NCBI GenBank assembly: GCA_017558255.1
Contig: JAFYVX010000177.1
Location: 1-44,815, forward strand
Reading direction: 5' to 3'
Origin: Bacteroidaceae bacterium
Lineage (GTDB): Bacteria; Bacteroidota; Bacteroidia; Bacteroidales; Bacteroidaceae
Length of the DNA: 44,815 nt
Below are positions 6,183 through 39,686 of this stretch, in pieces. The position numbers and the translations under genes were made by a program. Numbering within the stretch: the first letter of the stretch is position 1; each line of letters begins with the position of its first letter. The notes beneath the pieces are model-generated. The model was not told the origin of the DNA. It worked only from the letters and a program-made list of their open reading frames with translations, and did not search any database.

Positions 6183-6189
6183 CAAGTGA

Positions 6190-12762: not shown

Positions 12763-12789
12763 AGTGTATTGTGTTTTAATTATTCACCA

Positions 12790-12898: not shown

Positions 12899-12906
12899 TA
12901 ACTTTG
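12899..12906 (+). promoter_or_regulatory. -7 box TAACTTTG; likely BREX operon promoter
   Basis: TAnnTTTG match 39 nt upstream of the brxA ATG. A TTG (12876-12878) lies about 20 nt upstream as a possible -33 element. It is the only consensus box I found ahead of the 28-kb same-strand array. Confidence 0.5.
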
Positions 12907-12944
12907 TGCTGGAAATACAAGCAAAGACCTAACTGCACCTAACA

Positions 12945-20800: not shown

Positions 20801-21403
20801 GATGACGAATTGGCTCCGTACACCTATCAAAGTGCTACGGTAAACATAGACGACGATGGCATCATCCCTATCCTACCCCAAGGATGCCCATTCGATGACA
20901 ACCTGCCCAACCGCATTGCCGACTTCATACGCATTGCCTTTGGAGAGGAACACCTGACTGAAAACCTCAACTACATGGAAAAGCAGTTGGGCATGAGCAT
21001 AGAGCAATACCTGCTGAAGGACTTCTGGAAAGACCACAAGAAGATGTACCAGAACCGCCCCATCTACTGGCTATTTTCATCAAAGAAGGGTGCATTCAAG
21101 TGCATCACCTACATGCACCGCATGGATGCCTATACCGCCGAGCGAGTACGCAGCAAGTACCTGCTCCCCTATATAGAAATGCTCCAGAACAAGGTAAACG
21201 ACCTTTCCAACCGTGCCTCACAGCTCAGCACCACCGAGCGCCGCCAGCTGGACAACATGAAGAAGACCCTCGAAGAGTGCAACGAATACCACGACCGCCT
21301 GCAAGTCCTGGCCGAAGACACCGAACGCACCACCTTCGACCTCGACGACGGCGTAATAGTAAACTATGCCAAGTATGGCGATGTGTTAGCCAAGATTAAG
21401 TAA
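17864..21403 (+). CDS. pglX: BREX N6-adenine DNA methyltransferase PglX
   Basis: 1179 aa. SAM motif I DLACGSGH at 18782-18805 and catalytic motif IV NPPY at 19319-19330. Position matches the BREX order. Confidence 0.9.
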   Translation: MDTNRIKKFASEARNILKKGIAAKITSLGFDSKGNVQELHKPQLMQGGSLWNGQLQTEGFYHRWMALYSRVCQKGIKEVYEEAAYTWFNRLMAIRILQKNGLCEGVMDYADAARTPQIVNEARTGSIPQMTEENRRHLMDLLDDDTKVTEQFALLITAWCQQNAIIAACFGGIADYTELLLPNNILAEGGFVDMINHTEFITDEEYHSPELIGWLYQFYISERKDEVFAKKGKFEADEIPAATQIFTPNWIVKYMVQNTVGRIYLDNNPWTADEFKPKWKYLVEPSEETPQDSIYRYDELTDLKVADLACGSGHILNECFDLLYDLYISEGYSRREAIENIFHKNLTGIDLDTRAKQMATFALLLKASQKDQSFADAHVLPHVLSMPQCNQDTWTVLSEQFNSRYGLHCPETSDKELSATFTLMEDADSLGSIMKFRISDTTRLYIQQSLEQYHGDAMPNKAFKPLVHGMELVHTLTEKYSALVMNPPYMGSGNMNSVLSKYVKDKYEEGKADLFSTFMILAINRLASQGKYGMINMHSWMFLSSFEKLRNTILNEQQIDNLLHLGPRTFDELSGEVVQNAAFVITKKRSNGLGIYYRLVDGKDCSDKERMFLNAPNLDNLYYPNIPQKNFEKIPGCPIGYWVSEKIIKIFTSLPNINDVGITRLGMTTGENARFVRLWHEVNSTLCKFDATCQLDLDKSNAYFVPYNKGGSFRKWYGNNDCVLYWKDEGYDIKHFADSNGRIRSTVPNTEFYFLPCASWSKISSGKIAFRYKCCSIFDVAGACYFAYKYDLRYMMGFLNSNIVDVIIGALSPTLNYEGGQIASLPICYTDNHKLVENIVAEAISLSQSDWDSHETSWDFEENPLTFISKRLDVLKNLAEVVEQYKEEWTERFMQLHANEEELNRQFIDIYGLQDELTPDVPLDEITILQQGEIKIEDNQIKWNNDVLMKQLISYAVGVWMGRYRLDKPGLNIAHPEPTDDELAPYTYQSATVNIDDDGIIPILPQGCPFDDNLPNRIADFIRIAFGEEHLTENLNYMEKQLGMSIEQYLLKDFWKDHKKMYQNRPIYWLFSSKKGAFKCITYMHRMDAYTAERVRSKYLLPYIEMLQNKVNDLSNRASQLSTTERRQLDNMKKTLEECNEYHDRLQVLAEDTERTTFDLDDGVIVNYAKYGDVLAKIK

Positions 21404-21424: not shown

Positions 21425-22360
21425 ATGATTACAATTAAGAGAATAGAGATAAAAGGTTACTTCGGACGTGGAGACTTCGAATGGAATCTTGACTCTGTGG
21501 TAAATATCTTAGGTGGTAAGAATGGAAGTGGTAAATCATCCATATTCAAGCTTTGCTATTTGTTGCTGTCAAACAAAACAATTGATGACGATACGGACAA
21601 GAAGTTCATGAAAATCTTCAAAGAAGTCAAACTGACTTATTCGAACGGATGGACTCAAACTTGGGTACATCAAAGCAATAATGATGATTATACATTAGAA
21701 ATAGGAGGTTCTCAAGCATCATCATATAGAACAGCTTCACAAATTGTTGACATAAATGGTCAAAAACGAACTTTCGAGGAGCTACAAAAGCAGATAAAAG
21801 TATATCTGATAAATTCGTTTGAACAGCATGTAGCTGATGCAACCAGTTACGAACAACAACCAAAGTCTGAGACATTGAATGATCCAACTATGCTCGATTT
21901 GATGATTAAGAATCAGATTGACCAACGTAACAAGGACTTCTCAAAAATAATGGAAGACATCGTAGATATGCCAGAAGACAGTACGCCCGAAAACCAAGCA
22001 TATATCAAAGCATACAGAAAAACCTATACTTCCATCAACCATTTCCTTAATGAATACGATAAGCCTAAGAGCTCATTTGAATTTATTAAGAAGGGAGAAA
22101 CAATCAAGTATGACCAACTCTCTATGGGTGAAAAACAGATATTATTATTGATGCTCATGGTTGGCAATACCAAGCAAGAACCATGTATCTTCTTTATGGA
22201 TGAGCCTGACTTGAGCATGCACATCGACTGGAAAGAAATACTTGTGAAGGAACTTCATGAGCTGAATCCGAATATGCAGATTATCCTTTCAACTCATGCA
22301 CCAAGCGTCATTACAGGATGGCATGACAGAGTAAAAGAAGTCAGCCAACTTATCAAATGA
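21425..22360 (+). CDS. Compact ABC/AAA_21-type ATPase, PARIS AriA-like
   Basis: Walker A GGKNGSGKS at 21512-21538, signature-like LSMGEKQ, Walker B IFFMDEPDLSMH and H-loop LSTHAP. It is paired, 8 nt apart, with a DUF4435-like gene. Confidence 0.6.
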   Translation: MITIKRIEIKGYFGRGDFEWNLDSVVNILGGKNGSGKSSIFKLCYLLLSNKTIDDDTDKKFMKIFKEVKLTYSNGWTQTWVHQSNNDDYTLEIGGSQASSYRTASQIVDINGQKRTFEELQKQIKVYLINSFEQHVADATSYEQQPKSETLNDPTMLDLMIKNQIDQRNKDFSKIMEDIVDMPEDSTPENQAYIKAYRKTYTSINHFLNEYDKPKSSFEFIKKGETIKYDQLSMGEKQILLLMLMVGNTKQEPCIFFMDEPDLSMHIDWKEILVKELHELNPNMQIILSTHAPSVITGWHDRVKEVSQLIK

Positions 22361-22368
22361 GGTAGATT

Positions 22369-23358
22369 ATGGCGACATTGACAAGTGCATATAATCCCAG
22401 TTATTCAGAAAACGCATCTATACTAACCGGTAATCCCAACAGAGTAATTGTTGAGATTGAAGACAGTATAGATAAGGGATTTTGGGAGAACATATTGAAG
22501 GAACAATGTCCTTCAAAAGATTTACATTTCAATCCCTATCACACGGTTCTGAATGATAATGATATGGGGAATAGAGTGAAAGGTAAAACCCGTATTATGG
22601 AAATGGCCGATCAAATGAATGATTGGCATATAGGTTGCATCGATAGTGATTATGATTGGATACTTTCAGATTATTGTAACAAAGGCAAGACGATAAACGA
22701 CAACAAGTATCTATTACAAACATACGCATACTCATTTGAGAACTTGGTATGCTTGTCATCTACACTGAATGACTTCTGCCAAGAAACGACAGAAGAATGT
22801 ACAGATATAGACTTTAATGATTACGTTCAGAAAGTATCAGAGGTCATATATCCACTTCTGATATGGTCGGTTTATCTATATAGTAAAGGAAATCATGATT
22901 TCACACCTACTGCTTGGCATGATATTCTAATAAGTACTTTAAATGATACAAAAGCTTCATTGGAATTAATCAAAGAAAGAGTGAAGGCAAAGCTTGATGA
23001 ACTTAATACAAATCATACTTCTGAAATAGCAGAAAGGAATAATATGCAAGACTCTCTTTCTAACGTGAAAAGTATCACAAAAGAAAATGCCTATCTCTTC
23101 GTTAGAGGTCATGAATTGTTTGATCATTTGGTAAATAGTATTCTTAAGCCAATCATTGGCGGATTGAGAACACAACATTACAACACCATTAATAAATTAG
23201 ATATGGATAAAGATGCTCGTACTATTGCGTTGAAGGATTATTCTAATAAACAAAAATCTGTAAAAGATTTACTGTACAAGAATTATCGTTATAAAGAGCA
23301 AACTTTTATCTATGATATGATTTGTAAAGACGTGGAGAAGATTTGGACAAAGAATTAA
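22369..23358 (+). CDS. DUF4435/Toprim-like protein, PARIS AriB-like
   Basis: N-terminal RVIVEIEDSIDKGFW (conserved Glu) and IGCIDSDYDW (DxD) fit the Toprim/DUF4435 pattern. It follows the ATPase gene immediately. Confidence 0.55.
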   Translation: MATLTSAYNPSYSENASILTGNPNRVIVEIEDSIDKGFWENILKEQCPSKDLHFNPYHTVLNDNDMGNRVKGKTRIMEMADQMNDWHIGCIDSDYDWILSDYCNKGKTINDNKYLLQTYAYSFENLVCLSSTLNDFCQETTEECTDIDFNDYVQKVSEVIYPLLIWSVYLYSKGNHDFTPTAWHDILISTLNDTKASLELIKERVKAKLDELNTNHTSEIAERNNMQDSLSNVKSITKENAYLFVRGHELFDHLVNSILKPIIGGLRTQHYNTINKLDMDKDARTIALKDYSNKQKSVKDLLYKNYRYKEQTFIYDMICKDVEKIWTKN

Positions 23359-23416: not shown

Positions 23417-24244
23417 ATGCCAACACCCGATTTTCCCAAATTGATAGATTGTGGAACATGTTCACTACACATTGTTACACCTAATAACGTATGGTTTATT
23501 GAAGAACTTTTCAGATTTGCCGACGTCAGGAAATTCTATGTGCTGCGCAGTGACCACGCTGCAAACATCAAACTGTTCTGCCAATATGTGCTCAATGCTA
23601 CATCTCAAAAGTATACACTGAACTATATTATATACAACAACTACGGAGATGAGGCAGGATTCATTTCAGCCGAACCCACCATGAATCCGATGACCAATAT
23701 GCCAACATGGAATATGGGATATGCCGTGCATCCGACGCACAGACAACGAGGATATGCAACAAGTGCCGTAAACGCACTGACCAATTTCCTGCTTCATAAT
23801 TTCTCTCTACAGAATGTGATGCTAGACATCTGCGAAGAAAATCATCATTCAATCAAGGTTGCACAAAAGTGTGGTTTCAGGAAACCTAATGACGGAATGG
23901 GGTATTTCGACATGCAGAATCCTGAACTTGGCATGAGGATGCGATGGTTCAAGCAACTTGCAGGAGAAAGAACCTCCTACTTTAACCTGGCTGTACAATA
24001 CTACAGACAGAAGGCATACGCACCATCCGTAGAGGCATTCAAACAGGCCCTCAGTGTGCCCTACCAGCCCGGCACACCATATACCGATGCTCAAATCTAT
24101 TCGAACATGGGCATGGCACTGTCTTCATTGGAAAGATATAATGAAGCTTTCCAATGTCTAAAGAAAGCTCAAAGTTTAGGATTGAACAATCCAAGTATTG
24201 AGAAGGAATTGAATTGGTTGAGAAATAATATTGGACTTTATTAA
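23417..24244 (+). CDS. GNAT N-acetyltransferase (RimJ/RimL-like) fused to C-terminal TPR repeats
   Basis: GNAT motif A region: GYAVHPTHRQRGYATSAVNALTNFLL...IKVAQKCGF. The C-terminal ~90 aa form TPR-like pairs (YFNLAVQYYRQKAYAPSVEAFKQAL; YSNMGMALSSLERYNEAFQCLKKA). Confidence 0.7.
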   Translation: MPTPDFPKLIDCGTCSLHIVTPNNVWFIEELFRFADVRKFYVLRSDHAANIKLFCQYVLNATSQKYTLNYIIYNNYGDEAGFISAEPTMNPMTNMPTWNMGYAVHPTHRQRGYATSAVNALTNFLLHNFSLQNVMLDICEENHHSIKVAQKCGFRKPNDGMGYFDMQNPELGMRMRWFKQLAGERTSYFNLAVQYYRQKAYAPSVEAFKQALSVPYQPGTPYTDAQIYSNMGMALSSLERYNEAFQCLKKAQSLGLNNPSIEKELNWLRNNIGLY

Positions 24245-24268
24245 TAGGATTAGGAATCACTAATTATT

Positions 24269-27200
24269 ATGGGATTTGATAAAAGCAAATTAACTAGGGC
24301 AGAGCGCGATTTCTTTGAACATCGCAAATTGAAGGATAAATTCTTCATAGGATGTTTTAATAAAACGGAGTCAGGTTATCTTATATCTGACATTCGTCGT
24401 TCTGACTTCTCTAAGATTAAATATAAACCTGCTAATTCAAAATCATTTACCATTGATGTAGCTGGATTATTGAATAGGAATCTTAAAGAAGACTGCTATT
24501 ATTTGTTTACATGGGTTATGCTAGAGTCTAATCCCGAATACATCTTTGGCGTTGATGAAAATGAGGATATCAAGCTTATTAGTCCACATGACATAGTTTC
24601 TCTACTTTATCACGACATATACAATTATCCAGCCAGTGCATCAGAGAAGATTGTCAACACACTAGACACATTAAAGAATCAACTTACCGCTAGTGGCAAG
24701 GAAGTCTTTATATATGAACTGCTCCAGAATGCTAATGACTATCCACTGAAAGTTGATGGCAGAAAACAACCTGTGGATGTTGAATTCCATATCACTGACA
24801 ATTACTTGGTGTTCCAACATTCCGGCGACTATTTTGATGCCAAGAACATTGCTGCTATTTGTAGCATTAACGATAAAGAAAAAACAGACAATAGTGAAGC
24901 TATTGGTTATAAAGGAATCGGGTTCAAAACTGTATTCTTAGACAACAACTATGTATTATTAAAGACTGGAGCGTACTCCTTCTGTTTTGACTACGAACAT
25001 ACAAAGAATATTGATGATACTCCTTGGCAAATTCTTCCTATATGGACTGACGATGAGGATGTGGACGATGAAGTATTGGATATAATTGATAATGCCGATA
25101 GCAAATTCCGTGTTCAAATTGCTTTGCGACCAACTGAACCTGAAATATTACATGAAAGCGAACAGAACTATGAAGAACTATTCGCTGATGTTTTTGAAAC
25201 AGAACGAGTAATTTTATTTATACCATATATAAGAAGTGTCAGTGTATATATGGATGGCGATGATGAGCCTACCATTGTCAAGGTTAAAGAAAACGACAAG
25301 TGGTGTGTGTCTGAAGCTAAGAAATACGTTAGTGATGTTCCCGAAGAATTGACAGAAGAACTGAATCGCCGCATAAATAAAAATGATGGTAAAATTCCGG
25401 AAAAGTATTTTAACTTCAAGAAAACGTCAGTTGGCTTTGCTTGTAAACGTGACGGAAATAAACTTATGCCTGTAGAGAATACATGCTTATATTGTTATCT
25501 TCCTGCAAAGAAAGCCAAATGGGGTTTTGGATTCCTTATGAATTCAGATATGATTCCAACTGGTCCACGTGATAATGTTGAGCCTAAAGAGAAAATAAAT
25601 CATATAATAGCAAAAATAGCTGGCAAGCAATTCTTTGCATGGATTCAAGATTTGCTTAATTCAAATGAGTTTGACTATGATTCAGTATTCAGTCTTATTC
25701 CAAACTTTGAAGATTGCAAAGAAAGATATGAGGATGATGAAGACGTGGTTAAATTCATCGAAGAATTCCAAGAGGGTTTTGAAGAAGAATTGAAAGATGG
25801 TGCAATCATACCTGTCGAAGAAGACGGTCAAATGGTACTGAAACCTCTTGATGAAGTTAACTATGACGAAACTGGTATCACCTGTACTGATTTGATGACT
25901 GATGATGAAGTTCGTGAGTTTACTAGCTGGAAAGACTTTTTCCCACATACAGACTTGCGTGATTATGATAGTTATAGTTTAAGACCTGGAATAGAAACGT
26001 TTTTGCGTACCTATGTTCTAAATAATTACACATTGGATTTCAGTCATATACTTAAATCATGCGAAAATACAAAGTTCCAAGAATGGCTTTCAGACTCTGA
26101 TAACAACAATGCTTTTCTTAAATTTTTGGTAAGCAAAGAACAAATTATCGAGTTTAAGGCCAAGAAAATCTTCATGACCGAGGATAAAGAATTACGAGCA
26201 GCTGTATCAATATACGAAGATATTGATGCTTTCTATCCTGACCTTGTTGCTTTCAATGATTATTTACCACGTCTGGCCAAAGTTACTCGTGATTATTTCA
26301 AGAACAATGAAGAATGGGATTCCATCCATGATGACTTGTTTAAATCCTTCGATCCAGATATTTTCGTAGATAAAGAACTGAGAGATAAGAATAATATTGA
26401 AGACACCAAGCAACGTTTGAGGGAAAAGAAAGCATCTTTAGGCTTTTTTAATTTCCTTGCAGAGCATGTAGGCTATACTAATGCCTACAAAGAGTTCCCT
26501 GTTCTTAGCTTTGTGGATGATGAGTTCATAGATGACTTTAGAGGGAATATCTATTTCTACAGTAAAGAGGGGGAAGAACTGTACAATGAAGAATGGACAG
26601 CGGAAGGATGGGTGAATCTCATATCTGAAGAGTATTCGGATAAAGCAAAAGAATACTTTGAAAAAGAATTTGGTGTCCCTGAATTTAGTGTTGAAAGCTT
26701 CTTTGAGGATGTAATTTTTACAAAAGAGGCCAGGGGGTATCTAAACGACTTGGGACAGGAGCATATAGCTTTTGTCAAGTATTGCTTTGAACATAAAGAT
26801 AGCCTTGGCGACAATAATCTTACAGATTATTCACTTTGGACATACGACAAAGAGGGTGAAAATGAGCACATACTAAGCGAAGATGTCATTTTCTTCCAAA
26901 ATGATTTGTTAGAAGATTTTCAAGGCAAAACGTGGATTAAGAATGGCTGGATGTATCGTTTGGATGAAGAATACCTTGAAGATGTTGAAGAAAGGGAATC
27001 ATTCTGCCAGTTCCTTGCCGACAAGTTTGGTGTTCTCACGTTCACGATGGAAACCTTCTATGACAAAGTTGTTTCAGAGCATATAACGGATATTTGTGAA
27101 AATGTCGGTGGTACAGAATCAGATAAAGATACAGATGAAAGTATCGACATCTTGACATATCTTGGTGAGAACTATAAACTTATATTTGAAGATAATGGTA

Positions 27201-30200
27201 GTGAGAAGTTTATAAACCTTCCGCTCTATCGATATGACACATGGGATTCCATAACCAATAGAGATATTCCTGTATATCTTCATAATGCTGAATTGGAAGC
27301 TTTGCTCGATGCTAATTGGATGCCTGATGATGTAGCATACATGTTGGAGGAAAGATACAATGAAGTTTTCTCCAAATATCCTCAGTTGATGAAGAAATTG
27401 CAGATTTCCAAATATTCTTTCAAGCTATACAAAGAATCATTATTGTCTGACATGGATTCGTTAGCAGATTCCACATCAGAAAAAGAAAAGAACGTAGAGT
27501 TCCATCGTTTTATGTTCTCAAACAAGGATGATTTGACAAAGTCAGATTATAAGGCCCTGAAATCTATAGCTATTTATGCAGTTGATAAGGATGGCGAAGA
27601 AGATAACCATTCTTTAGATGAAGCTCTTTATCTTGCAGATATATATATGGAAGCAGGAAAGGGTGTTGAAACTATGGTGAAAAAATATGATGAGACGGCA
27701 TGTTTCATTTCTGATGCATATATATCTGAAGAAAATGAGGAAGATGATATTGAAGCATGGCGTGATTACTTTGTCAACTTGGGAGCTAGGTATAATATTC
27801 GTGACATAGTATTCACAAGTATAGTTCCTAACTTGTCTGACATCAAGAATAAAGATATAGTATCTCTTCTTGCCGACTATTATGATGATTTCCAGGCAGA
27901 AGGTAAATGGGATGAAGTCAAGGATGACCTATGCAATCTTAATGTTTTGACCAAAGGCGGTGAAGACGATTTCAGACCAATCGGAGAAGTGTTATTCAAT
28001 GACTGCTATGACTCAGACCCATATCCATATATCGTAATAGAAGATGAAATATCAGATTTATATCGCAATGCCTCTCCTGAAGTCATGCGACTTCTTAGAG
28101 AGATTGTCAAAGAGGCAGAATCTCGCTCATTCAGCACATTAGACGAATGGAAACAAGAGAAATTGGTATGGTATCTATATCTGCAAAAAGAGAATTTAGA
28201 TAGTATAAAGCCTATTCATGTCAGATTTATTCAGGACCTGGCTAAGGATTATATTCTTCATAGTGATTTGTACACAAGGACTAAAGTCAGAGAGATTTTA
28301 CTCAAAGGGAAAGATGATGAATTCTATTCCCCAAAAGAATTGACTGAGGGATCAGCATACAAACCTCGTTGTGACTTTGAACGTTTTGACATTCCTTTAA
28401 CATATTTGAGTGAATGCTATCTTCCATTTGAGAATCCTGATGCAAAAGTGTTCAGGAAAATCTTTACGGATATGGATGTTGTTTATGACATCCATGAGAG
28501 GCATCTGCATTTAATGAAAGATAGTTATACATTTACTATTTATTTCTGGACTGAATATCTTGTTCAATATGCCAATCGTACTCATATAACTTCTATGGGT
28601 ATTGAGGAATTGAACAAGCATGCTACTATTCCTACTGGAAATTCTAATAGAAATGAAGTCAAGAAGCCTTCTCAACTATATTCACAATCACTTATTCAAG
28701 ACGGATTCGTGAAAGGTATGGTTATGGGCTATGAAGATAAAATGCCTTTAGAGTCAATATTCTCAACCAAAGAAGTAAAGGACGAGATTCTTAGCAAATT
28801 GAATTTTGCAACTTCATTAAGTTTCTGCGACTGTCTTGACTGTCTTTTACATACTAAAAACAAGGCAAAAAGACAGCATATCTTATCATGGCTTGCAAAC
28901 AAGAACAATATTGATGAAGATGCTATAAACAACTATTTGGCTAATAAAGATTCTATTTGGCGTAATGGTAGAGGTGAATTTGTTAGACTGAAGGAATTGT
29001 ATGTTATAGACATTAATGAAGAGCGTCTTAAACAACTTTTTGGTAAAAATGCCAAAGTCATGTCCCAGGAATATATTGATAGTGAATATGTTTTCAGTAG
29101 TTTCTGTAAAATCTTTGGTATAAATGCCTTGACTCAAGATGATTTTGATTTGACACCAGAAATTATCGAGGAGCCAACAACAGAGGAAATGAGGAAGAAA
29201 TTAAGATTACCTTTGTTGATTGTAGCTGCTGTTTCTGCCCCCAATAATTGGAAAGAACTGTATGATAATTACTGTGAGAAGCTGGACGAGCTAATATTCC
29301 GTAGATGTAAGTCAATCACCTTGAATTATAAGGGAGAACTGAAAGATTCAAGTATTCAATACCATAAAGAGACTACAGAACTGTTCTATGTGAAGGACTG
29401 GATGGGAAGACGTGTATTCAAAGATTTTATTGCCGACTTAATAGGGTATTTCGACATTGATTTGGATTCCAATGTATTGGAGGCTATTTTTGAAGCAGAC
29501 GATGAAAACCAAACAGAAATCATCGACCAATACGTTAACTATGAATTGAGTTGCGATAATGATTTCATGGAAATACTTGCAGAATTGAATACAGACATTG
29601 CCATGGGCGTTCAGATAGTTGACCGTTCTGATGAAGAGGATATTTCTGATACATCATCTGAATTTGGGAACAACAATCGTGATGAATTGAATGACGATGA
29701 AGACGAAAATCAGAATGCAGATGAAGAAGATTTTGAATCAGAAGAAGATGGAGAAGAATACGAAGATGCTCAGGATGAAGAAGATGATAATAGTAATGAT
29801 GAAGACACTGATGAGGATGAAGACATTTCTACAGTTGATGACAATGATTTAGGAGATGATTACACAGAATCTGATTATGTAGATGAAGAAAGTGATGACG
29901 ATGAGCTAGTTGATGATGAAGAAGATGGTAATAAAGAGCAGAAAGAATCTGCTTCTCGCAAACCAAATACTTCTAATTATGATGAGGATAATGATTTTGG
30001 TGTGGCATATGATTATACACATCATGCAAATGACAGACATAGCTCCCAATCTTCTCATGACCACAATTATGAATCAAGGAATCGGTCAAATTCACAATCT
30101 CAACACAGAGAATCATCTTCAGAACATCAATATGACGAAGATAGGCAAAGAACCAAGAGACAGAGCACTGGCAAACGTCGCAATTATATGGGCTACGACC

Positions 30201-30826
30201 CAGATGAAACAAGTCATAGACAGTTCAATGTGGGTAAGCAAGAAGCGACAACTCTTGAAACAAGAGAAGCTACAGCGGATGAAATTTCTCGTCTTAGTTC
30301 ATTGTTGGGCCGCGCATTCGATAGCGATTCCATAGTTGATGAGAACTATCTAGTCAGAATGCGATTCTACAATAGTGTGAAGGAAGAAATCGGTGAGCCG
30401 AAGATGAGTGAGAAAGAATTTATTTCTAAAGGACACAAGTACATGCAGACAAAATCAGGAAAGTATGTACATCGTTGTAGCGCACGAGGTGGTATTTTAT
30501 ATGTATCCCCTTCCATTTGGAATCGAGTGAAGTATGATAGTTGCATTATCTGTATGTATTACGGCAAGAAAGCCAATCAGTTCCTTTACATACGCTCACA
30601 AAAGGAACTTATGGATATGATTGATAAGGATGCTATTCTTGTACAGGTAACTGGCAATGACAAGGGACGTTTTGTGAACAAGGTGTATGATTCCCATTTC
30701 CCAGAAATGGACGGAAACATCTACACAATGATACGAACTATCAAGACTCATGGTGATGATTTCATCTTTGAGCCAACAGATACGAGCAATAAGAATGATA
30801 ATGATTTTGACCCAGACTTGGTATGA
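24269..30826 (+). CDS. 2185-aa sacsin-type GHKL (HATPase_c_3-like) ATPase with a repeat-rich middle, a polyacidic tract and a C-terminal globular domain
   Basis: Bergerat-fold boxes: ELLQNANDY (24716-24742), FQHSGDYFDAKNIAAICS and GYKGIGFKTVF (24905-24937). It is one uninterrupted ORF, and its stop overlaps the start of the next gene (ATGA). Confidence 0.7.
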   Translation: MGFDKSKLTRAERDFFEHRKLKDKFFIGCFNKTESGYLISDIRRSDFSKIKYKPANSKSFTIDVAGLLNRNLKEDCYYLFTWVMLESNPEYIFGVDENEDIKLISPHDIVSLLYHDIYNYPASASEKIVNTLDTLKNQLTASGKEVFIYELLQNANDYPLKVDGRKQPVDVEFHITDNYLVFQHSGDYFDAKNIAAICSINDKEKTDNSEAIGYKGIGFKTVFLDNNYVLLKTGAYSFCFDYEHTKNIDDTPWQILPIWTDDEDVDDEVLDIIDNADSKFRVQIALRPTEPEILHESEQNYEELFADVFETERVILFIPYIRSVSVYMDGDDEPTIVKVKENDKWCVSEAKKYVSDVPEELTEELNRRINKNDGKIPEKYFNFKKTSVGFACKRDGNKLMPVENTCLYCYLPAKKAKWGFGFLMNSDMIPTGPRDNVEPKEKINHIIAKIAGKQFFAWIQDLLNSNEFDYDSVFSLIPNFEDCKERYEDDEDVVKFIEEFQEGFEEELKDGAIIPVEEDGQMVLKPLDEVNYDETGITCTDLMTDDEVREFTSWKDFFPHTDLRDYDSYSLRPGIETFLRTYVLNNYTLDFSHILKSCENTKFQEWLSDSDNNNAFLKFLVSKEQIIEFKAKKIFMTEDKELRAAVSIYEDIDAFYPDLVAFNDYLPRLAKVTRDYFKNNEEWDSIHDDLFKSFDPDIFVDKELRDKNNIEDTKQRLREKKASLGFFNFLAEHVGYTNAYKEFPVLSFVDDEFIDDFRGNIYFYSKEGEELYNEEWTAEGWVNLISEEYSDKAKEYFEKEFGVPEFSVESFFEDVIFTKEARGYLNDLGQEHIAFVKYCFEHKDSLGDNNLTDYSLWTYDKEGENEHILSEDVIFFQNDLLEDFQGKTWIKNGWMYRLDEEYLEDVEERESFCQFLADKFGVLTFTMETFYDKVVSEHITDICENVGGTESDKDTDESIDILTYLGENYKLIFEDNGSEKFINLPLYRYDTWDSITNRDIPVYLHNAELEALLDANWMPDDVAYMLEERYNEVFSKYPQLMKKLQISKYSFKLYKESLLSDMDSLADSTSEKEKNVEFHRFMFSNKDDLTKSDYKALKSIAIYAVDKDGEEDNHSLDEALYLADIYMEAGKGVETMVKKYDETACFISDAYISEENEEDDIEAWRDYFVNLGARYNIRDIVFTSIVPNLSDIKNKDIVSLLADYYDDFQAEGKWDEVKDDLCNLNVLTKGGEDDFRPIGEVLFNDCYDSDPYPYIVIEDEISDLYRNASPEVMRLLREIVKEAESRSFSTLDEWKQEKLVWYLYLQKENLDSIKPIHVRFIQDLAKDYILHSDLYTRTKVREILLKGKDDEFYSPKELTEGSAYKPRCDFERFDIPLTYLSECYLPFENPDAKVFRKIFTDMDVVYDIHERHLHLMKDSYTFTIYFWTEYLVQYANRTHITSMGIEELNKHATIPTGNSNRNEVKKPSQLYSQSLIQDGFVKGMVMGYEDKMPLESIFSTKEVKDEILSKLNFATSLSFCDCLDCLLHTKNKAKRQHILSWLANKNNIDEDAINNYLANKDSIWRNGRGEFVRLKELYVIDINEERLKQLFGKNAKVMSQEYIDSEYVFSSFCKIFGINALTQDDFDLTPEIIEEPTTEEMRKKLRLPLLIVAAVSAPNNWKELYDNYCEKLDELIFRRCKSITLNYKGELKDSSIQYHKETTELFYVKDWMGRRVFKDFIADLIGYFDIDLDSNVLEAIFEADDENQTEIIDQYVNYELSCDNDFMEILAELNTDIAMGVQIVDRSDEEDISDTSSEFGNNNRDELNDDEDENQNADEEDFESEEDGEEYEDAQDEEDDNSNDEDTDEDEDISTVDDNDLGDDYTESDYVDEESDDDELVDDEEDGNKEQKESASRKPNTSNYDEDNDFGVAYDYTHHANDRHSSQSSHDHNYESRNRSNSQSQHRESSSEHQYDEDRQRTKRQSTGKRRNYMGYDPDETSHRQFNVGKQEATTLETREATADEISRLSSLLGRAFDSDSIVDENYLVRMRFYNSVKEEIGEPKMSEKEFISKGHKYMQTKSGKYVHRCSARGGILYVSPSIWNRVKYDSCIICMYYGKKANQFLYIRSQKELMDMIDKDAILVQVTGNDKGRFVNKVYDSHFPEMDGNIYTMIRTIKTHGDDFIFEPTDTSNKNDNDFDPDLV

Positions 30827-32595
30827 CAAATAATGAGACCATAAACAACTATGTACGCTTCTTCCGTGATCAAAAACGTGAAGTAGAAAGAGCATATAGC
30901 TATATTCTGGACTCATCAGTAAGCATGTTGCTTAAAGATGGTGCTTTGAATGTAGGGACTATTGTTAGTGCCTCGCCTAAAACAGGTAATATCACAATAA
31001 AGATACGAAAAGGATATGCTCCCCGTTTGAAAATGATGAAGAGCTTTACCATTGTTACTAAGAAAGCAAAAGATAAATTCGGTCAAAGTGCTCTCTTATG
31101 GAATATTACCTTTCGTACTTTCCATGATGGTGTTGGTTTAAGGATGGGTGAATCAGATATAATGCCCCTTTATTTCAGGAAGAGCCCTGACACACAATAT
31201 GATTACATAGTATGTGGTGCTATTGATTTGGAAATGTTTTCATTTATAAATGAATGTGTAAACAATAGAGGTAATGCTATAACAGCATTATTATACGATT
31301 CATACCCACCTACAGAGTATTTTGAGAATCTTGCCTATTTTACTCATGCACTTCAGGAATCAAAAGAACTACTTCTGAGACCTCAGATTAGTTATGACGA
31401 ATGGGAACCTGAAGAGTTAGCTTATACCGATGAGGAACCAAACATTATATCAGAAACAGTCGCAAAAACCTTAAACTTTGAAGGTTGTTGCATTCTTCAA
31501 GGTCCTCCTGGTACAGGAAAGAGTTATACAATTGCCACAATTATATCTTCATATCTAAAAAAAGGACTTTCCGTTTGTGTTACCACAATGGCAAATACAG
31601 GCCTTGTTGAGTTGGCAAAGCAGTCACCATTAAGTAAAGAACTTGCAGATGGGAAGATTTACAAGACATCACTTAAAGCTGATGAAGCGAAGTCTGCCAT
31701 AGGATTAAAAGCCGCTAAAAGTGATTTGGTAGTTCCACAAGGCTGTCTTTTGTGTACATCATATTATAAACTCTCGTCTATAGTAGGTGTGAATAGTAAT
31801 GAGAAATCAGCATTCTTTGACTTGATGGTTATCGAGGAAGCATCTCAAGCATTCTTGTCAACTATCGTAGCATTCAAAACATTAGGACGACAATGTCTGA
31901 TAGTTGGCGACCCGATGCAGTTACCACCAATTGTACAAGGACTGGGACAAAAACCAGAATATAAATTGTGGAATGCAGATATCCAGTGCAACGGAATGAG
32001 TGCATATGCTATGGGGACTTCTATCAAAAGTTACCGAATAGTTACAACATTCCGATTAACACCCAATAGTGCAGCACTTACAAAACTTTTCTATAGCAAC
32101 AATTTCCGTTCTGTAAAGAAGAAATATATAGATTTTGGCGGGTTAAGTAAGAAATATTTTCCACGTGATGGTGGAGTTTTGTATAAGTTTGTCAGTGGTT
32201 TTGTTGACCAGAATTATAATATTCGGTCTCTCAATTTTATCTCAGAACTTGTACAAACAATAGAAAAGCATCGCCCGGAAAGCAGTATGGCTATCATATC
32301 TCCTTTCCGTGAGACTGTCAAAAAGCTTCAAAGCGAATTGCAGACTGACAATAGAAAGTTAAAGGACTTTACTATTGAGACTATTGACCGCATACAGGGA
32401 ATGACTGTAGATTATGCCATCTTATATTTGCCAGCTGCTGGTTCTAGTTTTGCACTTGATGAAAGACGTTTCAATGTGGCTACAAGTCGTTCTTTGAGCA
32501 CAACATTAATTATCTCTGATGTCGAGTTACATCGTTTAGCAAAATTTAGAGGTAAAATTAAAAATTTCATTCAAGCATCTAAAAGAATTGATTAG
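30823..32595 (+). CDS. Superfamily 1 helicase, Upf1/DNA2-like (AAA_11/AAA_12 pattern)
   Basis: GPPGTGKS (31501-31524), VIEEASQ (motif II), LIVGDPMQLPP (motif III), DRIQGMTVDY (motif V) and RRFNVATSRS (motif VI). An ~200-aa N-terminal domain of unknown function precedes the motor. Confidence 0.8.
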   Translation: MTNNETINNYVRFFRDQKREVERAYSYILDSSVSMLLKDGALNVGTIVSASPKTGNITIKIRKGYAPRLKMMKSFTIVTKKAKDKFGQSALLWNITFRTFHDGVGLRMGESDIMPLYFRKSPDTQYDYIVCGAIDLEMFSFINECVNNRGNAITALLYDSYPPTEYFENLAYFTHALQESKELLLRPQISYDEWEPEELAYTDEEPNIISETVAKTLNFEGCCILQGPPGTGKSYTIATIISSYLKKGLSVCVTTMANTGLVELAKQSPLSKELADGKIYKTSLKADEAKSAIGLKAAKSDLVVPQGCLLCTSYYKLSSIVGVNSNEKSAFFDLMVIEEASQAFLSTIVAFKTLGRQCLIVGDPMQLPPIVQGLGQKPEYKLWNADIQCNGMSAYAMGTSIKSYRIVTTFRLTPNSAALTKLFYSNNFRSVKKKYIDFGGLSKKYFPRDGGVLYKFVSGFVDQNYNIRSLNFISELVQTIEKHRPESSMAIISPFRETVKKLQSELQTDNRKLKDFTIETIDRIQGMTVDYAILYLPAAGSSFALDERRFNVATSRSLSTTLIISDVELHRLAKFRGKIKNFIQASKRID

Positions 32596-32607
32596 TATAA
32601 GATTATT

Positions 32608-35148
32608 ATGGTACAAAAAAGAATATATAGTTATTTTGAGCGTAATCCTCAACTTCACGTACTCTTCATCTTCGACAAGATGAACATCATCCAAACAGAC
32701 TTGGAAGGTACAGAATGGGATGAGGATAAATATATATATAAGGTATTTGATGGTGCTTGGTTTAATACGAAGTATGCCATTGAAAATACATGGAAAGAAA
32801 AGCGAATCGTGCTTTTATTTCCAGAAACAATGTATCCACAAACGGAAGAGCAAATGCTGAAGTTTCCATTATTAGATATGTTAAAAGCTAATATGGAATA
32901 TAAGGAAGAAGATTATGCAAGCTTTATGCAACAATATGACCTTCCACAAAAGTATGCATCTTTCATCAAAAGAAACATTACCGAGATTATGTCCAATAAG
33001 ATTAGCACTATGTTAAACGGACATTTCTCTGCTGAAACTTTTAGTGAAGATGTTGTATGTCGTGGATTTATTTCATCATATCTTGGTGAAAAGAAACCAC
33101 TTGAATGGAGTTTAATCATTGTGAAAATGATTATACTTGGATTAGTCAGTGAGGAGAAGAAAAGAAAAGAATTTTTCCTGAAATTAGCTAAGAATCTAGA
33201 TGCAAAAAAGGCTGTAGAAAAGAAACTCACCAATATTTTCGGTTTCAGTTATAATCCTAATACTGAAATCAAGATGAAAGAAGTTGTTGAATGCCTGAAG
33301 TATAATTCTATTACACAGTTGCTTACAGTTTCACCCTCAGATAACTATAAACAGCTAAAGATTTCCAATGCCCTTCAACTAGAGCAAATAAACAAGTTGT
33401 ATGATACTGGTTTACATGATAGAATTTTATCAGAAAAGTTCTTGAATGCTATGCAAACTATTGGCTCCGACATAAAGGAAGAATCTATCATTGAATCCTA
33501 TGGAATCGACGCAGACTATTTCTATATGACAGAAAATCTCTGCTGGCCAATACTAAAAGCGATTGTAGAAAGCAAATTAGTCACTGAGCCGGCAGAAGCC
33601 AATGAACAAATGAGAGAACTAAGCTTGAAGTTCCCTACTAACTCTGATATTCAAACAGTCATTCGCTTCATCGAGCAAATGGCATTGTATTATGATAAAG
33701 TTAAGGGCATTGGCACATTAAAATTAAATAGTCCTGAAGAATATGTCCAAAGATATATTAATGAGTTTTATCTTGTAGACATGTTCTATAGACGTTCATT
33801 AGAGGCATACCACATGCTCATAACCAAGGAGATTCCCATAGAAAGCACACTAAGCAATGCAAAGAGGAATCTGGACAGGGAATATGCACGCATCTCAAAT
33901 GTACTGAACCTGGAATGGCTTACGTGCATAAACGAACGAGAGGAACTGTTCGCTGCCCTGTCTGTGCCCAAGCAGGAAGACTTCTGTGCTGAAACAATGG
34001 ATACGGCAACCAAGAAGGTTGTTATAATATCGGATGCACTGCGCTTTGAGGTTGCCAAGGAACTGATGCAGGAACTGTCCAAGGAAAAGAATATGGCTTC
34101 CATTTCGGCAATGAGAGCCATGCTACCTACGGAGACAAAATTCTGCAAACTGGCGCTCCTACCCCACCATTCATTGGAATTGCAGGGAACGGAAATGCTT
34201 GTGGACGGACAAGTGCTCAACACAATAGAAAAGAGGACTGTTCATTTGCAAAAGTACAGGGAAGAGGCCATGTGCGTGAACTACGAGGAAATTATGAACG
34301 CATCACAGCAGACGGCACGTGAAATATGCAAACGTCCGCTTGTATACATCTTCCACAATACAATTGATGAAGCAAGCCACTCACAATGTCAGTTTGAAGT
34401 AATAAGAGCATGCCGCACTGCCATAGAGCAGTTGGCGGTGCTGGTGAAACGTCTGCATGCTTCGTGGAATGTCAGCAATGTGATTATCACCTCGGACCAT
34501 GGGTTCGTGTACAACGACATGGTGTTTGAAGAGAAGGACAAGCATTCTGTTGAAGAGGATTTCATTGAAAAGAAAACCCGATACTACCTGACAAGCCAGA
34601 ACACTCCGGCAGAGGGTATTGCCAAATATAGGCTACAGAGCGTTTCGGGAATACAGGCGAATGACGACACCTATGTTGCTGTTCCCATAGGCACAAACAG
34701 AATGGCTGCATCGGGCGGATACAGCTTCACTCATGGCGGCGCTACGTTGCAGGAAATGATTGTACCCGTAATACGCAGCGTACAGAAGAGGAAAGAAAAG
34801 ACGGAGAAGGTGGGTGTGTCGTTGATGAACCATAACCTGAACATGGTTAGCAGCCAGGTGAAGCTACACATTATTCAGACCGAGGCCGTGTCCATGACTG
34901 TAATGGAAAGAAAGATAGTGTGCTGCATCTACAACGGCGATGAACCTGTGACAGGCGAAAAGGAGTTGGTGCTGAACAGCACAGACAGCGAAAACCTGAA
35001 CAATCGTGTCTACGAATTAAGCATGAATCTTACAAAGAGCGTGTCGAGCAGCATGCTGCAGCTCAGGATTTATGACGTCGATGACAGACTCAACCCATTG
35101 ATAAAGGAAACGGTAAAAAATAGCACTCTAATTGAACAGGACTTCTAA
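32608..35148 (+). CDS. pglZ: BREX alkaline-phosphatase-superfamily protein PglZ
   Basis: 846 aa. PglZ-domain motifs VVIISDALRFEVAKEL and ITSDHGF (SDHGF at 34492-34506). It is followed by brxL. Confidence 0.85.
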   Translation: MVQKRIYSYFERNPQLHVLFIFDKMNIIQTDLEGTEWDEDKYIYKVFDGAWFNTKYAIENTWKEKRIVLLFPETMYPQTEEQMLKFPLLDMLKANMEYKEEDYASFMQQYDLPQKYASFIKRNITEIMSNKISTMLNGHFSAETFSEDVVCRGFISSYLGEKKPLEWSLIIVKMIILGLVSEEKKRKEFFLKLAKNLDAKKAVEKKLTNIFGFSYNPNTEIKMKEVVECLKYNSITQLLTVSPSDNYKQLKISNALQLEQINKLYDTGLHDRILSEKFLNAMQTIGSDIKEESIIESYGIDADYFYMTENLCWPILKAIVESKLVTEPAEANEQMRELSLKFPTNSDIQTVIRFIEQMALYYDKVKGIGTLKLNSPEEYVQRYINEFYLVDMFYRRSLEAYHMLITKEIPIESTLSNAKRNLDREYARISNVLNLEWLTCINEREELFAALSVPKQEDFCAETMDTATKKVVIISDALRFEVAKELMQELSKEKNMASISAMRAMLPTETKFCKLALLPHHSLELQGTEMLVDGQVLNTIEKRTVHLQKYREEAMCVNYEEIMNASQQTAREICKRPLVYIFHNTIDEASHSQCQFEVIRACRTAIEQLAVLVKRLHASWNVSNVIITSDHGFVYNDMVFEEKDKHSVEEDFIEKKTRYYLTSQNTPAEGIAKYRLQSVSGIQANDDTYVAVPIGTNRMAASGGYSFTHGGATLQEMIVPVIRSVQKRKEKTEKVGVSLMNHNLNMVSSQVKLHIIQTEAVSMTVMERKIVCCIYNGDEPVTGEKELVLNSTDSENLNNRVYELSMNLTKSVSSSMLQLRIYDVDDRLNPLIKETVKNSTLIEQDF

Positions 35149-35163: not shown

Positions 35164-37245
35164 ATGACACTGCAGGAAAAGATATTGAGAGCCTTTAATG
35201 GCAAAGTGGTGAGAAAGGATTTGGCTTTCCTGGTAAAAGGCGGTCTGCCAGTTCCTACGTATGTATTGGAATTTCTTCTTGGACAATTCTGTGCCAGCGA
35301 TGATGAGGATTTAATTGACAAAGGACTGGAAAGAGTAAAAGAAGTAATCCAGTACAACTATGTGCACCGTGCTGAGGCAGAATCTGTGAAAGGAAAAATT
35401 CGTGAAGCAGGAAGCCATCGCATCATTGATAAGGTTACCGTGGTTCTCTATGAGAAAGCGGATGAATACCAGGCGTCCTTCGCCAACCTGGGACTGACGG
35501 GGGTTCCCATCGGTACACAATACGTCAAGTTAAATCCTAAACTGTTGTCTGGCAACGGTGTATGGTGTATAGTTACCGTGGGCTACATTTCTGGAGAAGA
35601 TATAAAGGTGAGGTGGGAAATACTGAATATGAAACCCATACAAATCTCCGACATCAATGTCAGCGAGTATGTTGACCAACGACAGTACTTTACCACCGAC
35701 GAATGGATTGACTTCCTGATGCATACTGTGGGACTGAACCCTGAAAAGATGAACAGAAGGGAAAAGTTCATCACACTGGCGCGTCTGCTGCCACATGTAG
35801 AAAACAACTTCAACTTCATGGAGCTGGGACCAAAGGGTACGGGCAAATCCCATGTATTCCAAGAATTGTCTCCCTATGGGGTACTTGTCAGCGGTGGTGA
35901 TGTAACACCTGCACGCCTGTTCGTGCGCATGAGCGGCAAGAGAGAGGAATTAGGTCTTGTGGGATATTGGGATGTAGTGGCATGGGACGAGTTCGAGCAG
36001 CAAAAGGGACGTTCAGTTGATGCCGTTCTTATAGATACCATGCAAAACTACCTTGCCAACAAATCGTTCAATAGAGGCAAGGGAACTCATGAGGCATCGG
36101 CATCGATGTGCTTTGTCGGCAATACGAAACATACCGTTCCATATATGCTGAAGAACAGCCACCTATTTGAGTCTATACCAACGTCGTTCATAAAGGGTGC
36201 TTTCCTTGACCGTATACACCTGTACAATCCTGGCTGGGAAATCAAGATGCTGAAGAAGGAGTCGTTCTCTAAGGGCTTCGGACTGATTACAGACTATATT
36301 GCTGCTATTCTGCATGAATTGCGCAACAAGGATTTGACAAGCATGCTGAAAGACTATGCCAAATTCGACCCGTCTCTGTCCGAGCGCGACCACCTTGCTA
36401 TCAGAAAAACTTTCTCTGGTATGGTGAAACTGCTTTATCCCGACCTGAAGATGACCGACGAGGAGGCGTATGAACTGGTAGATTTTGCTGCAGAAAGCAG
36501 AAAGCGTGTCAAAGACCAGCTGTATGTAATAGACGAAACATTCAGGGCAGAACCTGCTGTATTTAAGTATGTCAACTTGAAGACTGGCATAGAAATGAAT
36601 GTGGAAACGCTGGAGAAGGTGAGCAATGCGCTGATTGTTCCAATAAATCAGGCTATGTCCCCAACTGACAACAGGGTCAACGATGCTGATGCCAGACCAT
36701 ACAATCCGCAAGCGGCTATACCTATGGAAAAAACCACAAGGGAAGAGACCAAGCGGACTGATGCTCCTGCACTGAGAGAACAGAACCTGTCCTTCAGAAT
36801 GGGACAGACTGGAATTTCATTTGAAAAACTGTTTGCACCTTACATGCAGAATGCAAATGAGATTGTCGTTGAAGACCCTTATATCCGAACATCTTGGCAA
36901 ATAAAGAATTTCCTGGAGTTTGTGACAATGCTCATAGATACACGACCTGTGGATGACTTGAAACTGAAATTGGTGACAAGTGAAGAGGAAGAAAAGTGTC
37001 TTGAACTCATAGACAGGCTTGATGACATCAAAGACGACCTCGCTGCGTACGGTATCGAATTTGAATATACACTAAGAGACTTCCACGACCGTTGCATCAA
37101 GACGGACACTGGATGGACCATAACCCTGGGACGCGGTCTTGACATGTTCGAGAAATACTCTCCCTTCAGCATTGCTAACAGCCGTCAGGACAAACGTAAA
37201 TGCAAAGAGTGCATGATAACATATATGAAATCTAAATCCATATAG
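35164..37245 (+). CDS. brxL: BREX Lon-like protease/ATPase BrxL
   Basis: 693 aa with Walker A GPKGTGKS at 35827-35850 and Walker B-like VVAWDEFEQ. It is the last canonical type 1 BREX gene. Confidence 0.85.
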   Translation: MTLQEKILRAFNGKVVRKDLAFLVKGGLPVPTYVLEFLLGQFCASDDEDLIDKGLERVKEVIQYNYVHRAEAESVKGKIREAGSHRIIDKVTVVLYEKADEYQASFANLGLTGVPIGTQYVKLNPKLLSGNGVWCIVTVGYISGEDIKVRWEILNMKPIQISDINVSEYVDQRQYFTTDEWIDFLMHTVGLNPEKMNRREKFITLARLLPHVENNFNFMELGPKGTGKSHVFQELSPYGVLVSGGDVTPARLFVRMSGKREELGLVGYWDVVAWDEFEQQKGRSVDAVLIDTMQNYLANKSFNRGKGTHEASASMCFVGNTKHTVPYMLKNSHLFESIPTSFIKGAFLDRIHLYNPGWEIKMLKKESFSKGFGLITDYIAAILHELRNKDLTSMLKDYAKFDPSLSERDHLAIRKTFSGMVKLLYPDLKMTDEEAYELVDFAAESRKRVKDQLYVIDETFRAEPAVFKYVNLKTGIEMNVETLEKVSNALIVPINQAMSPTDNRVNDADARPYNPQAAIPMEKTTREETKRTDAPALREQNLSFRMGQTGISFEKLFAPYMQNANEIVVEDPYIRTSWQIKNFLEFVTMLIDTRPVDDLKLKLVTSEEEEKCLELIDRLDDIKDDLAAYGIEFEYTLRDFHDRCIKTDTGWTITLGRGLDMFEKYSPFSIANSRQDKRKCKECMITYMKSKSI

Positions 37246-37607: not shown

Positions 37608-37633
37608 AAGAATAATAAATACATATAACAGTT

Positions 37634-38899: not shown

Positions 38900-38921
38900 A
38901 AACAACTTAAACCAATAAATT

Positions 38922-39668: not shown

Positions 39669-39686
39669 GATAATATCCAACGCAAT

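Follow-up and report, generated by a model that had tools for sequence, protein, structure and literature searches.

We analysed a stretch of 44,815 nucleotides from a Bacteroidaceae bacterium (GenBank assembly GCA_017558255.1, contig JAFYVX010000177.1; hereafter the window) in which a giant GHKL ATPase of 2185 residues (positions 24269-30826, + strand) is followed by a superfamily 1 (SF1) helicase of 590 residues (30823-32595, + strand), both within a type 1 BREX operon. The pair is a helicase-partnered architectural variant of the defence protein Tiamat (TmtA) and not a categorically new system. We consider it probable that the two genes constitute a self-contained, horizontally mobile module of the TmtA superfamily, most likely directed against phages or plasmids, which the window carries as cargo in the pglX-pglZ slot of Bacteroidales BREX type 1 operons.

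That the two genes belong together is suggested first by the ATGA at 30823-30826 (+ strand), in which the stop codon of the giant overlaps the start codon of the helicase and which would be expected to couple their translation. Further support comes from relatives. When one genome per species was scanned, 80 loci were obtained (loci carry L numbers below); 61 of them are informative in having a giant of at least 1200 residues and no less than 1.5 kb of flanking sequence on the 3' side. A helicase homologue lies directly downstream of the giant on the same strand in 53 of the 61, these adjacent helicases showing 25-73%, typically 44-48%, identity in alignment. In six more, giant and helicase are fused into a single protein of 2640-2697 residues, always with GPPGTGKT near residue 2200. 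The two informative loci without a helicase, L087 and L090, both encode canonical, NOV_C-bearing TmtA. In relatives, giant and helicase are typically spaced by -11 to +12 nt, and where the value is larger it comes mostly from the open reading frame (ORF) start calls of our script. In the reverse direction, three helicase homologues, picked only for their long contigs, were looked up and all three directly follow a giant of 2179-2364 residues. The initial annotation had proposed a module of two nucleoside triphosphatases (NTPases), and as 59 of the 61 informative genomes have a helicase next to the giant or fused to it, the proposal is borne out: the pair appears to be a conserved module whose genes are predicted to be translationally coupled.

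Apart from Bacteroidales, the 80 loci come from Lachnospiraceae, Oscillospiraceae, Anaerovoracaceae, Butyricicoccaceae, Eggerthellaceae and Sphaerochaetaceae, as well as from Kiritimatiellae, a candidate Peregrinibacteria genome and a Methanomethylophilaceae archaeon. The pair is thus spread over Bacteroidota, Firmicutes, Actinobacteria, Spirochaetes, Kiritimatiellae and one archaeon. The archaeal example, from a gut Candidatus Methanomethylophilaceae archaeon, is a fused giant-helicase of 2697 residues (L062, positions 416-8509), and its occurrence there indicates that the module has passed from one domain of life to another. Two domains vary in step across this set. The C-terminal domain of the giant and the N-terminal domain of the helicase are both present in all of the roughly 50 plainly full-length loci, and both are missing from about ten short or divergent relatives and from the giant-helicase fusions; the helicase domain is found by itself in two loci and the giant domain by itself in none. 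The two have been gained and lost together, which suggests, indirectly, that they touch.

It is the giant that places the pair in the TmtA superfamily. Its residues 109-650 (24593-26218, + strand), comprising the GHKL ATPase and an adjoining TmtA-like region, match the PADLOC TmtA profile PDLC03972 with E = 1e-96 over profile positions 6-518 of 1302 (~40%), and three further models of the set used (PDLC03964-03972) match with E = 1e-13 to 1e-21. Tiamat was reportedly named by Millman et al. in 2022 as a single-gene anti-phage system, and it is as a single-gene system, its mechanism not described, that it is still known; the preprint by Millman et al. gives neither the names of the systems nor a list of their domains. 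Giant and TmtA have in common the sacsin/NO VEIN-type GHKL ATPase and adjoining region, a large, mostly helical body, a weakly alignable stretch just ahead of the C-terminal domain (residues 1611-1725 of the giant align weakly to the region before NOV_C in L087, domain E = 0.002) and a location in defence islands.

On the other hand, canonical TmtA has around 1300 residues (1296 in L087, 1274 in L090) as against 2185, and in these two proteins starts at the GHKL domain, without the N-terminal extension of the giant, which resembles an oligonucleotide/oligosaccharide-binding (OB) fold. It is matched full-length by its profile (L087 covers positions 5-1293), as the giant is not, and it ends in the PD-(D/E)XK domain NOV_C/DUF3883 (PF13020), whereas the giant ends in a domain private to its family. 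Most helicase-partnered forms possess both the extension and this C-terminal domain. No NOV_C signal was detected in the latter: PF13020 matched neither the giant nor the C-terminal domains of 40 homologues at E ≤ 1, while it did match the L087 and L090 controls. Finally, TmtA is a single gene, whereas a dedicated SF1 helicase, adjacent or fused, accompanies the giant in 59 of the 61 informative relatives. A 1306-residue protein in L086 covers profile positions 5-1107 only, lacks NOV_C and has a helicase. As L087 and L090 have NOV_C and no helicase, and L086 the reverse, a PD-(D/E)XK-type domain in cis and an SF1 helicase in trans, or fused, look to be alternatives, and within the TmtA superfamily the helicase apparently stands in for the cis nuclease of Tiamat.

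Neither the literature searched nor PADLOC 2.0 yielded a paper or model for a helicase-partnered form of TmtA, and among the 25 top-ranked papers 'sacsin' occurs in a single preprint, in passing, in a HEPN section. The initial annotation had presented the two genes as a candidate undescribed system. For the giant, given the match to TmtA, that description has to be abandoned. For the helicase it can be retained, since in PADLOC 2.0 no model covers this partner beyond generic helicase motifs, so that only one of the two proteins is recognised by the profiles of a named defence system.

The ATPase of the giant is of the sacsin type, passing NCBIfam NF047352 (sacsin ATP-binding domain) with 66.8 bits against a cut-off of 50; there is also a weak Pfam SACS match. 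Bergerat motif I, ELLQNANDY, lies at residue 150 (24716-24742) and the glycine-rich box, GYKGIGFKTVF, at residue 213 (24905-24937). Homologues fall into 1712 database clusters at E ≤ 1e-3, mostly of 2100-2460 residues and mostly from gut Bacteroidales, and none has an informative name. An alignment of 11 diverse homologues reveals conservation from end to end, with E150, N154, D157, G186, G213, G216 and G218 invariant. Outside the ATPase region, Pfam searches with the N-terminus, middle and C-terminus at permissive E-values produced nothing credible, and PDB sequence searches with the giant and with a profile of the 11 sequences found no match.

Structure models were made with AlphaFold2 from substrings of database proteins. 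The N-terminal extension (residues 1-146, 24269-24706, + strand) is modelled, with a pLDDT score (predicted local distance difference test) of 83, as an OB-like β-barrel followed by two helices, and a Foldseek search of the PDB places OB folds on top (RMI2, RPA32, exosome Csl4/Rrp40 and ExoVII), with E of 0.05 or more and a TM-score of about 0.35. The middle region (residues ~651-1784, 26219-29620, + strand) is conserved across the family and belongs to no Pfam family. The initial annotation had called this region repeat-containing, and here it was mistaken, since comparing the giant with itself by BLASTP (E ≤ 1) produced no match off the diagonal. Its account of what follows, an acidic tract, a Ser/Arg/His tract and a C-terminal domain, was correct. 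By composition, residues ~1785-1989 (29621-30235, + strand) form a disordered linker, at first polyacidic (~1785-1890; residues 1770-1890 are 28% D and 22% E) and then rich in Ser, Arg, His and Asn (about 1890-1990). The acidic peak recurs in the family, where the best 60-residue window has a median of 43% D+E compared with 33% elsewhere in the same proteins.

The C-terminal domain (residues 1990-2185, ~196 residues; 30236-30823, + strand) is conserved and is modelled with a pLDDT of 83. Among 1.84 billion representative proteins it has 195 matches, every one of them the extreme C-terminus of a protein of 1400-2550 residues or a fragment of such a protein. No Pfam match was found to this domain in 40 giant homologues, nor anything in BFVD, the viral structure database. 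With Foldseek, PD-(D/E)XK nucleases come out on top (PvuII, PA endonuclease and the Cas4-like ACE1), with E of 0.04 or more and a TM-score of at most 0.3. We also considered a degenerate NOV_C/DUF3883 domain. By eye, VHRCSA..ILYVSPSIW in the giant resembles IEVKST...lS.nE in NOV_C; hhalign against the NOV_C domains of L087 and L090 returned a probability of 0.3%, and the idea is retained only as a conjecture.

The partner is assigned by its sequence to the UPF1-like SF1 helicases (SF1B, AAA_11/AAA_12). Both Pfam domains are found (AAA_11 with 55.2 bits and AAA_12 with 46.7, cut-offs 27) and its nearest sequence relatives in the PDB are Sen1, IGHMBP2, UPF1 and DNA2. Its motifs are GPPGTGKS at residue 227 (Walker A, nt 31501), VIEEASQ at 336 (motif II, IEEASQ, nt 31828), LIVGDPMQLPP at 359, DRIQGMTVDY at 522 and RRFNVATSRS at 548. 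The ORFs, their overlap and all the motifs that the initial annotation had reported for the two proteins were recovered in place, and its assignments to sacsin-type GHKL ATPases and SF1 helicases stand. As regards the N-terminal 1B barrel and stalk insertion typical of UPF1, IGHMBP2 and Sen1, Walker A at residue 227 corresponds to about residue 215 in IGHMBP2, an equivalence of position by alignment only. The helicase has 1143 homologues, and with such numbers for both proteins, and the giant conserved throughout, the observation lies far outside what chance would give. In a comparison of 50 partner helicases, GPPGTGK, EASQ, GD..Q..P and T/S-R are invariant. So is, in the same proteins, IEEASQ, in place of DEAxQ, as motif II, which is therefore a family signature and not a sign of decay. 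Matches to PADLOC (MkoA, MkoC and others) and NCBIfam models are confined to generic helicase motifs. The RecA core is preceded by a family-specific N-terminal domain (residues 1-205, 30823-31437, + strand), for which Pfam at permissive E-values gave nothing credible. The helicase of L001-L003 comes as two genes, one for a 208-residue N-terminal domain and another for helicase-PIN, and the N-terminal domain is therefore a discrete module.

Most partner helicases carry a putative effector. At the C-terminus of the same 50 proteins we find PIN_4 in 29, PIN_9 in five and HEPN_Swt1 in two, and the family consensus keeps the PIN acidic motifs IIDTN, DELD and TSDN. Since PIN and HEPN domains are of RNase type and UPF1-like helicases work on RNA as well as single-stranded DNA (PMC11090510), the substrate of the pair is likely to be one of these. 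The 590-residue helicase of the window, like its closest relatives, has no C-terminal PIN or HEPN domain. It might be supposed, then, that the window holds a decaying, effector-less remnant without function, the more so as the neighbouring GNAT-TPR gene seems to be without its usual partner, hel2 (see below). We regard this as most improbable. Both ORFs are intact, and with every catalytic motif in place both NTPases are predicted to be so too; they are ~99% identical to a second locus, L010, without a frameshift over 8.3 kb; and a PIN-less class of ~590-620 residues recurs in several lineages, including Firmicutes. Helicases embedded in BREX (in the window and L010-L012) all lack the PIN domain, as do others outside BREX such as those of L007, L025, L035 and L045. 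A third length class of ~690-717 residues was also seen (e.g. L039, L033, L031; P0447, P0469), some members of which have a C-terminal extension of ~100 residues without a Pfam match that may be another effector or adaptor domain.

We turn now to the relationship with BREX. The initial annotation located the pair between pglX (17864-21403, + strand) and pglZ (32608-35148, + strand), on the same strand. This is so, although the interval contains five genes and not two: AriA and AriB, which together make up PARIS (21425-23358), a gene encoding a 275-residue GNAT(Acetyltransf_3)-TPR protein (23417-24244), the giant and the helicase. Comparison with the closest related locus, L010, reveals a block of ~9.6 kb (24200-33800) that takes in the giant, the helicase and ~1.2 kb from the start of pglZ. 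Within it, nucleotide identity is 94-100% in 400-nt windows (~99% overall), as against 71-92% outside. The giants of the two loci are 99% identical; the GNAT gene is 77-82% identical, and pglZ beyond the block falls to ~74% nucleotide identity. The right edge of the block, inside pglZ near 33800-34 kb, coincides with a shift in GC content from 0.36 to 0.475. Such a block amid BREX genes of 72-92% identity, with a GC jump at its edge, points to a recent cassette exchange by recombination. As the block ends inside pglZ, the N-terminal ~400 residues of PglZ would travel with the cargo, and the PglZ of the window appears to be a recombinant.

The same slot in related BREX loci is variously occupied by another helicase with GNAT-TPR, by Zorya type I, by a fused giant-helicase or by combinations of these, and is sometimes empty. 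Zorya I genes (ZorA, ZorB, ZorC, ZorD) are seen in the Bacteroidales slot in L012 (18664-26275) and L092 (9847-17253), and in L010 the position of PARIS is taken by a 721-residue SF1 helicase. The pair is accordingly not conserved in BREX type 1 operons. An alternative would be that it is an accessory or back-up effector of BREX, acting for example on DNA marked or nicked by PglZ, without independent function. Its place within the operon, where 24 nt separate it from the GNAT gene ahead and 12 nt from pglZ behind, the inclusion of part of pglZ in the exchanged block and the lack of a PIN domain in the window and L010-L012 copies alike are all in keeping with this, as is a 2026 survey of BREX neighbourhoods, which describes PARIS-like and nuclease 'back-up' modules and argues that BREX loci recruit effectors of this kind (PMC12839542). 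However, BREX genes accompany the pair in only four of the 80 genomic loci, and a 94%-identical helicase is found with its giant outside BREX, adjoining a VapE-like gene. In L012, Zorya I comes directly after the pair and separates the helicase from pglZ. PARIS and Zorya I, unrelated and autonomous systems, use the same slot, PIN-less helicases are not limited to BREX and the survey makes no mention of GHKL, Tiamat, Zorya or UPF1-like cargo. We consider the accessory role unlikely and favour the pair as autonomous cargo of the BREX operon, not a component of its core. Of the two options offered by the initial annotation, an autonomous system parked in a pglX-pglZ hotspot or a BREX accessory, the first is thereby preferred.

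Elsewhere the neighbours of the pair include relaxase/Mob genes, HipBA, AbiE, AbiH, reverse transcriptases, SLFN/AlbA-HATPase_c_4 proteins, TIR, Zeta toxin, a DEAD/MZB helicase and GmrSD, and several copies adjoin relaxase or Mob genes on mobilisable elements. Phage records contained no instance of the helicase, IMG/VR no more than four contigs encoding a giant, and PLSDB only distant DUF3883-type relatives of the giant. Just upstream of the giant in some stand-alone copies on mobilisable elements there is a gene for an XRE-type helix-turn-helix protein of 71-73 residues (L001, 2637-2858; L105, 2578-2793; L106, 270-485), which is absent at the BREX-embedded copy and might regulate transcription of the pair.

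This genomic company bears on a further alternative, in which the pair has no role in immunity. By analogy with sacsin and UPF1 it could instead serve as a chaperone or in RNA quality control, or else mobile elements might use it for maintenance or addiction. In favour of this, sacsin of eukaryotes has chaperone function and RNA surveillance involves UPF1-like helicases (PMC3710099, PMC11090510), and there are the copies beside relaxase/Mob genes. Yet horizontal transfer drives a patchy distribution, the copies consistently lie among defence genes, the closest named relative, TmtA, is a validated defence protein family and most partner helicases bear RNase domains typical of abortive-infection systems. 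We judge a function outside immunity distinctly unlikely. The giant shares its flavour of GHKL ATP-binding domain with eukaryotic sacsin and plant NO VEIN, and NOV_C itself occurs in canonical bacterial TmtA. It differs from sacsin in having no UBL, DnaJ or HEPN domain, from NO VEIN in having no NOV_C, and from both in its setting in bacterial defence islands.

Does the module extend upstream? The GNAT-TPR gene was examined, together with a helicase gene here called hel2, in L092, L094-L100 and L108-L188. Where present, hel2 lies directly upstream of GNAT-TPR and encodes a distinct AAA_11/AAA_12 helicase of 586-730 residues; hel2 proteins are 55-72% identical to one another and 23% identical to the window helicase. 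The order hel2, GNAT-TPR, giant, helicase is seen in L010 and L011 (BREX), in L094-L097 (with fused giant) and in L108 and L109 (non-BREX), so that in the clade of the window GNAT-TPR travels with the pair outside BREX too. In L090, a 39%-identical GNAT-TPR comes next after canonical TmtA. One might conclude from this that these genes form one larger unit of three or four, in which the hel2 of the window was displaced by PARIS. Against it, a TmtA-family gene lies beside GNAT-TPR in only two of 79 metagenomic loci, most of which have GNAT-TPR just after pglX, with or without hel2, and then ZorA or pglZ; hel2 and GNAT-TPR occur alone, among transposases, in L098-L100; and none of the 53 genomic giant-helicase loci has a GNAT gene outside the clade of the window. 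The window GNAT gene also lies outside the ~99% block. The larger unit is thus very unlikely in our view. GNAT-TPR as a core, third component of the pair is rejected on the metagenome scan and on its position relative to the block; as it travels with the pair in the clade of the window, a modulating role is conceivable but of low probability. Instead, hel2 and GNAT-TPR look like a separate, undescribed module, BREX-associated or autonomous, and the GNAT-TPR of the window seems to have lost its usual hel2.

For a self-contained defence module built from the giant and the helicase, a mechanism can be outlined. The giant would act as infection sensor in the form of a GHKL clamp, gated by ATP and probably dimeric, and its OB-like N-terminal domain might do the sensing by binding single-stranded nucleic acid. 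This role is suggested by general GHKL biology and by the precedents of MORC-helicase operons and GHKL-Shedu, described below. Its C-terminal domain, borne on the acidic and basic disordered linker, would hold the helicase by the N-terminal domain of the latter. On activation, the 5'-3' SF1B motor would be released or loaded onto phage or host RNA or single-stranded DNA, and for the majority of the family the bound strand would then be degraded by PIN or HEPN. The window copy might have a motor-only output, stripping or stalling RNA-protein or replication intermediates, or it may need a nuclease not yet recognised. More specifically, and here we are doubtful, helicase-partnered TmtA could be a form of RNA-directed immunity in which a GHKL clamp with an OB-like sensor brings a UPF1-like motor carrying PIN or HEPN onto phage transcripts, the C-terminal domain of the giant serving as docking and release switch. 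If true, the system would combine a prokaryotic counterpart of the sacsin/NO VEIN ATPases with one of UPF1/SMG6-type helicase-plus-PIN RNA surveillance, and the PIN-less version embedded in BREX, acting by its motor alone, would represent an effector output of a new kind.

Several points weigh against our interpretation of the pair and of its workings. The structural matches behind the OB-like fold of the N-terminus, and likewise those behind a restriction-endonuclease-like fold of the C-terminal domain, are below significance. Physical contact between giant and helicase is deduced from the co-occurrence of the two domains, and the choice between RNA and DNA from the usual specificities of PIN, HEPN and UPF1-like proteins. 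Pfam detects no recognisable effector in either protein of the window. The tight packing of the helicase against pglZ makes co-transcription with BREX, and some cross-talk, possible. Lastly, the literature searched contains no experimental work on the giant-helicase family or on the mechanism of Tiamat.

Other systems resemble the pair in part. In prokaryotes, GHKL ATPases of the MORC type share restriction-like operons with helicases and nucleases (Iyer, Abhiman & Aravind 2008, PMC2292703), and in the GHKL-Shedu protein VcSduA both ATPase and nuclease are needed, mutation of either abolishing defence (PMC12137116). In these MORC/paraMORC and GHKL-Shedu conflict systems, as in the pair, a GHKL ATPase has a helicase, a nuclease or both as its partner. 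Their GHKL domains, however, are MORC or MutL-like and not sacsin-type, and their nucleases are DUF4263 or of restriction-endonuclease type, no such partner having been found for the pair; the helicases of the MORC/paraMORC operons, moreover, belong to superfamily II and not superfamily I. The pair thus resembles MORC-helicase operons in logic and not in family. The best PADLOC matches of the helicase are to the UPF1/MOV10-like cores of the Mokosh proteins MkoA and MkoC (E = 2e-25 and 1.5e-14), but it is the helicase motifs alone that match, the best stretch covering profile positions 965-1081 of 1112. Unlike Mokosh, the pair has no phospholipase D (PLD) nuclease, as judged by Pfam on both proteins, nor the Mokosh N-terminal region, and its partner is a GHKL giant. 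CoCoNuT types II and III unite a UPF1-like helicase, CnuH, with a HEPN protein, CnuE, often together with a TerY-P triad (PMC11090510). There too an SF1 helicase of the UPF1-like kind goes with effectors of RNase type, with predicted RNA targeting, and a TerY-P module is present in the window, at 37248-40934, beyond brxL. In contrast to CoCoNuT, no McrB-like GTPase (CnuB), McrC (CnuC) or coiled-coil nuclease was found in the window locus; the ORFs between 12.9 and 40.9 kb all belong to BREX, PARIS, GNAT-TPR, the pair or TerY-P, and none is McrBC-like.

The results suggest that the TmtA superfamily has a large second architecture, in which the diagnostic C-terminal domain is carried by ~200 clusters at 50% identity and helicase partners number over 1000, for the most part from gut Bacteroidales. 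In it, the cis nuclease would be replaced by a UPF1-like helicase, usually PIN-bearing, which points to RNA or single-stranded DNA. The two ATPase sites, the PIN site and the predicted docking interface offer handles on the mechanism of Tiamat. Annotation tools that score TmtA alone would miss the module or call it single-gene Tiamat. The Bacteroidales pglX-pglZ junction, for its part, can be viewed as a recombination-driven cargo slot, used by PARIS, Zorya I, helicase-GNAT and the present pair, and this bears on BREX phenotypes.

The remainder of the window gives the setting. The BREX type 1 operon is complete and on the same strand as the pair, its other genes being brxA (12945-13571), brxB (13568-14179), brxC (14217-17846) and brxL (35164-37245). 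In PARIS, AriA matches PDLC04164 with E = 8e-35 and AriB (DUF4435) matches PDLC04165 with E = 3e-38. Two small ORFs just upstream of brxA (11826-12278 and 12637-12942) remain without assignment. In L012, from Parabacteroides, an ORF of 382 residues (5857-7005) splits pglX into two parts (2883-5828 and 7028-7762) and may represent an insertion or a phase-variation element.

The TerY-P-type module directly after brxL consists of a TerY_C zinc-ribbon protein (119 residues), a Ser/Thr kinase with weak PD-T4-6/MAD6 matches, a VWA protein and a PP2C phosphatase. The module is kept in L010 and L011 as well, and no linkage to the giant-helicase pair was seen in other loci. About 10 kb ahead of the BREX operon, on the - strand (1218-2984), the window also encodes a reverse transcriptase of 588 residues (RVT_1, E = 1e-9), which could be a defence-associated reverse transcriptase, a retron or a group II intron. 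In L001, L006 and L105 there are likewise genes for reverse transcriptases, adjoining the pair.

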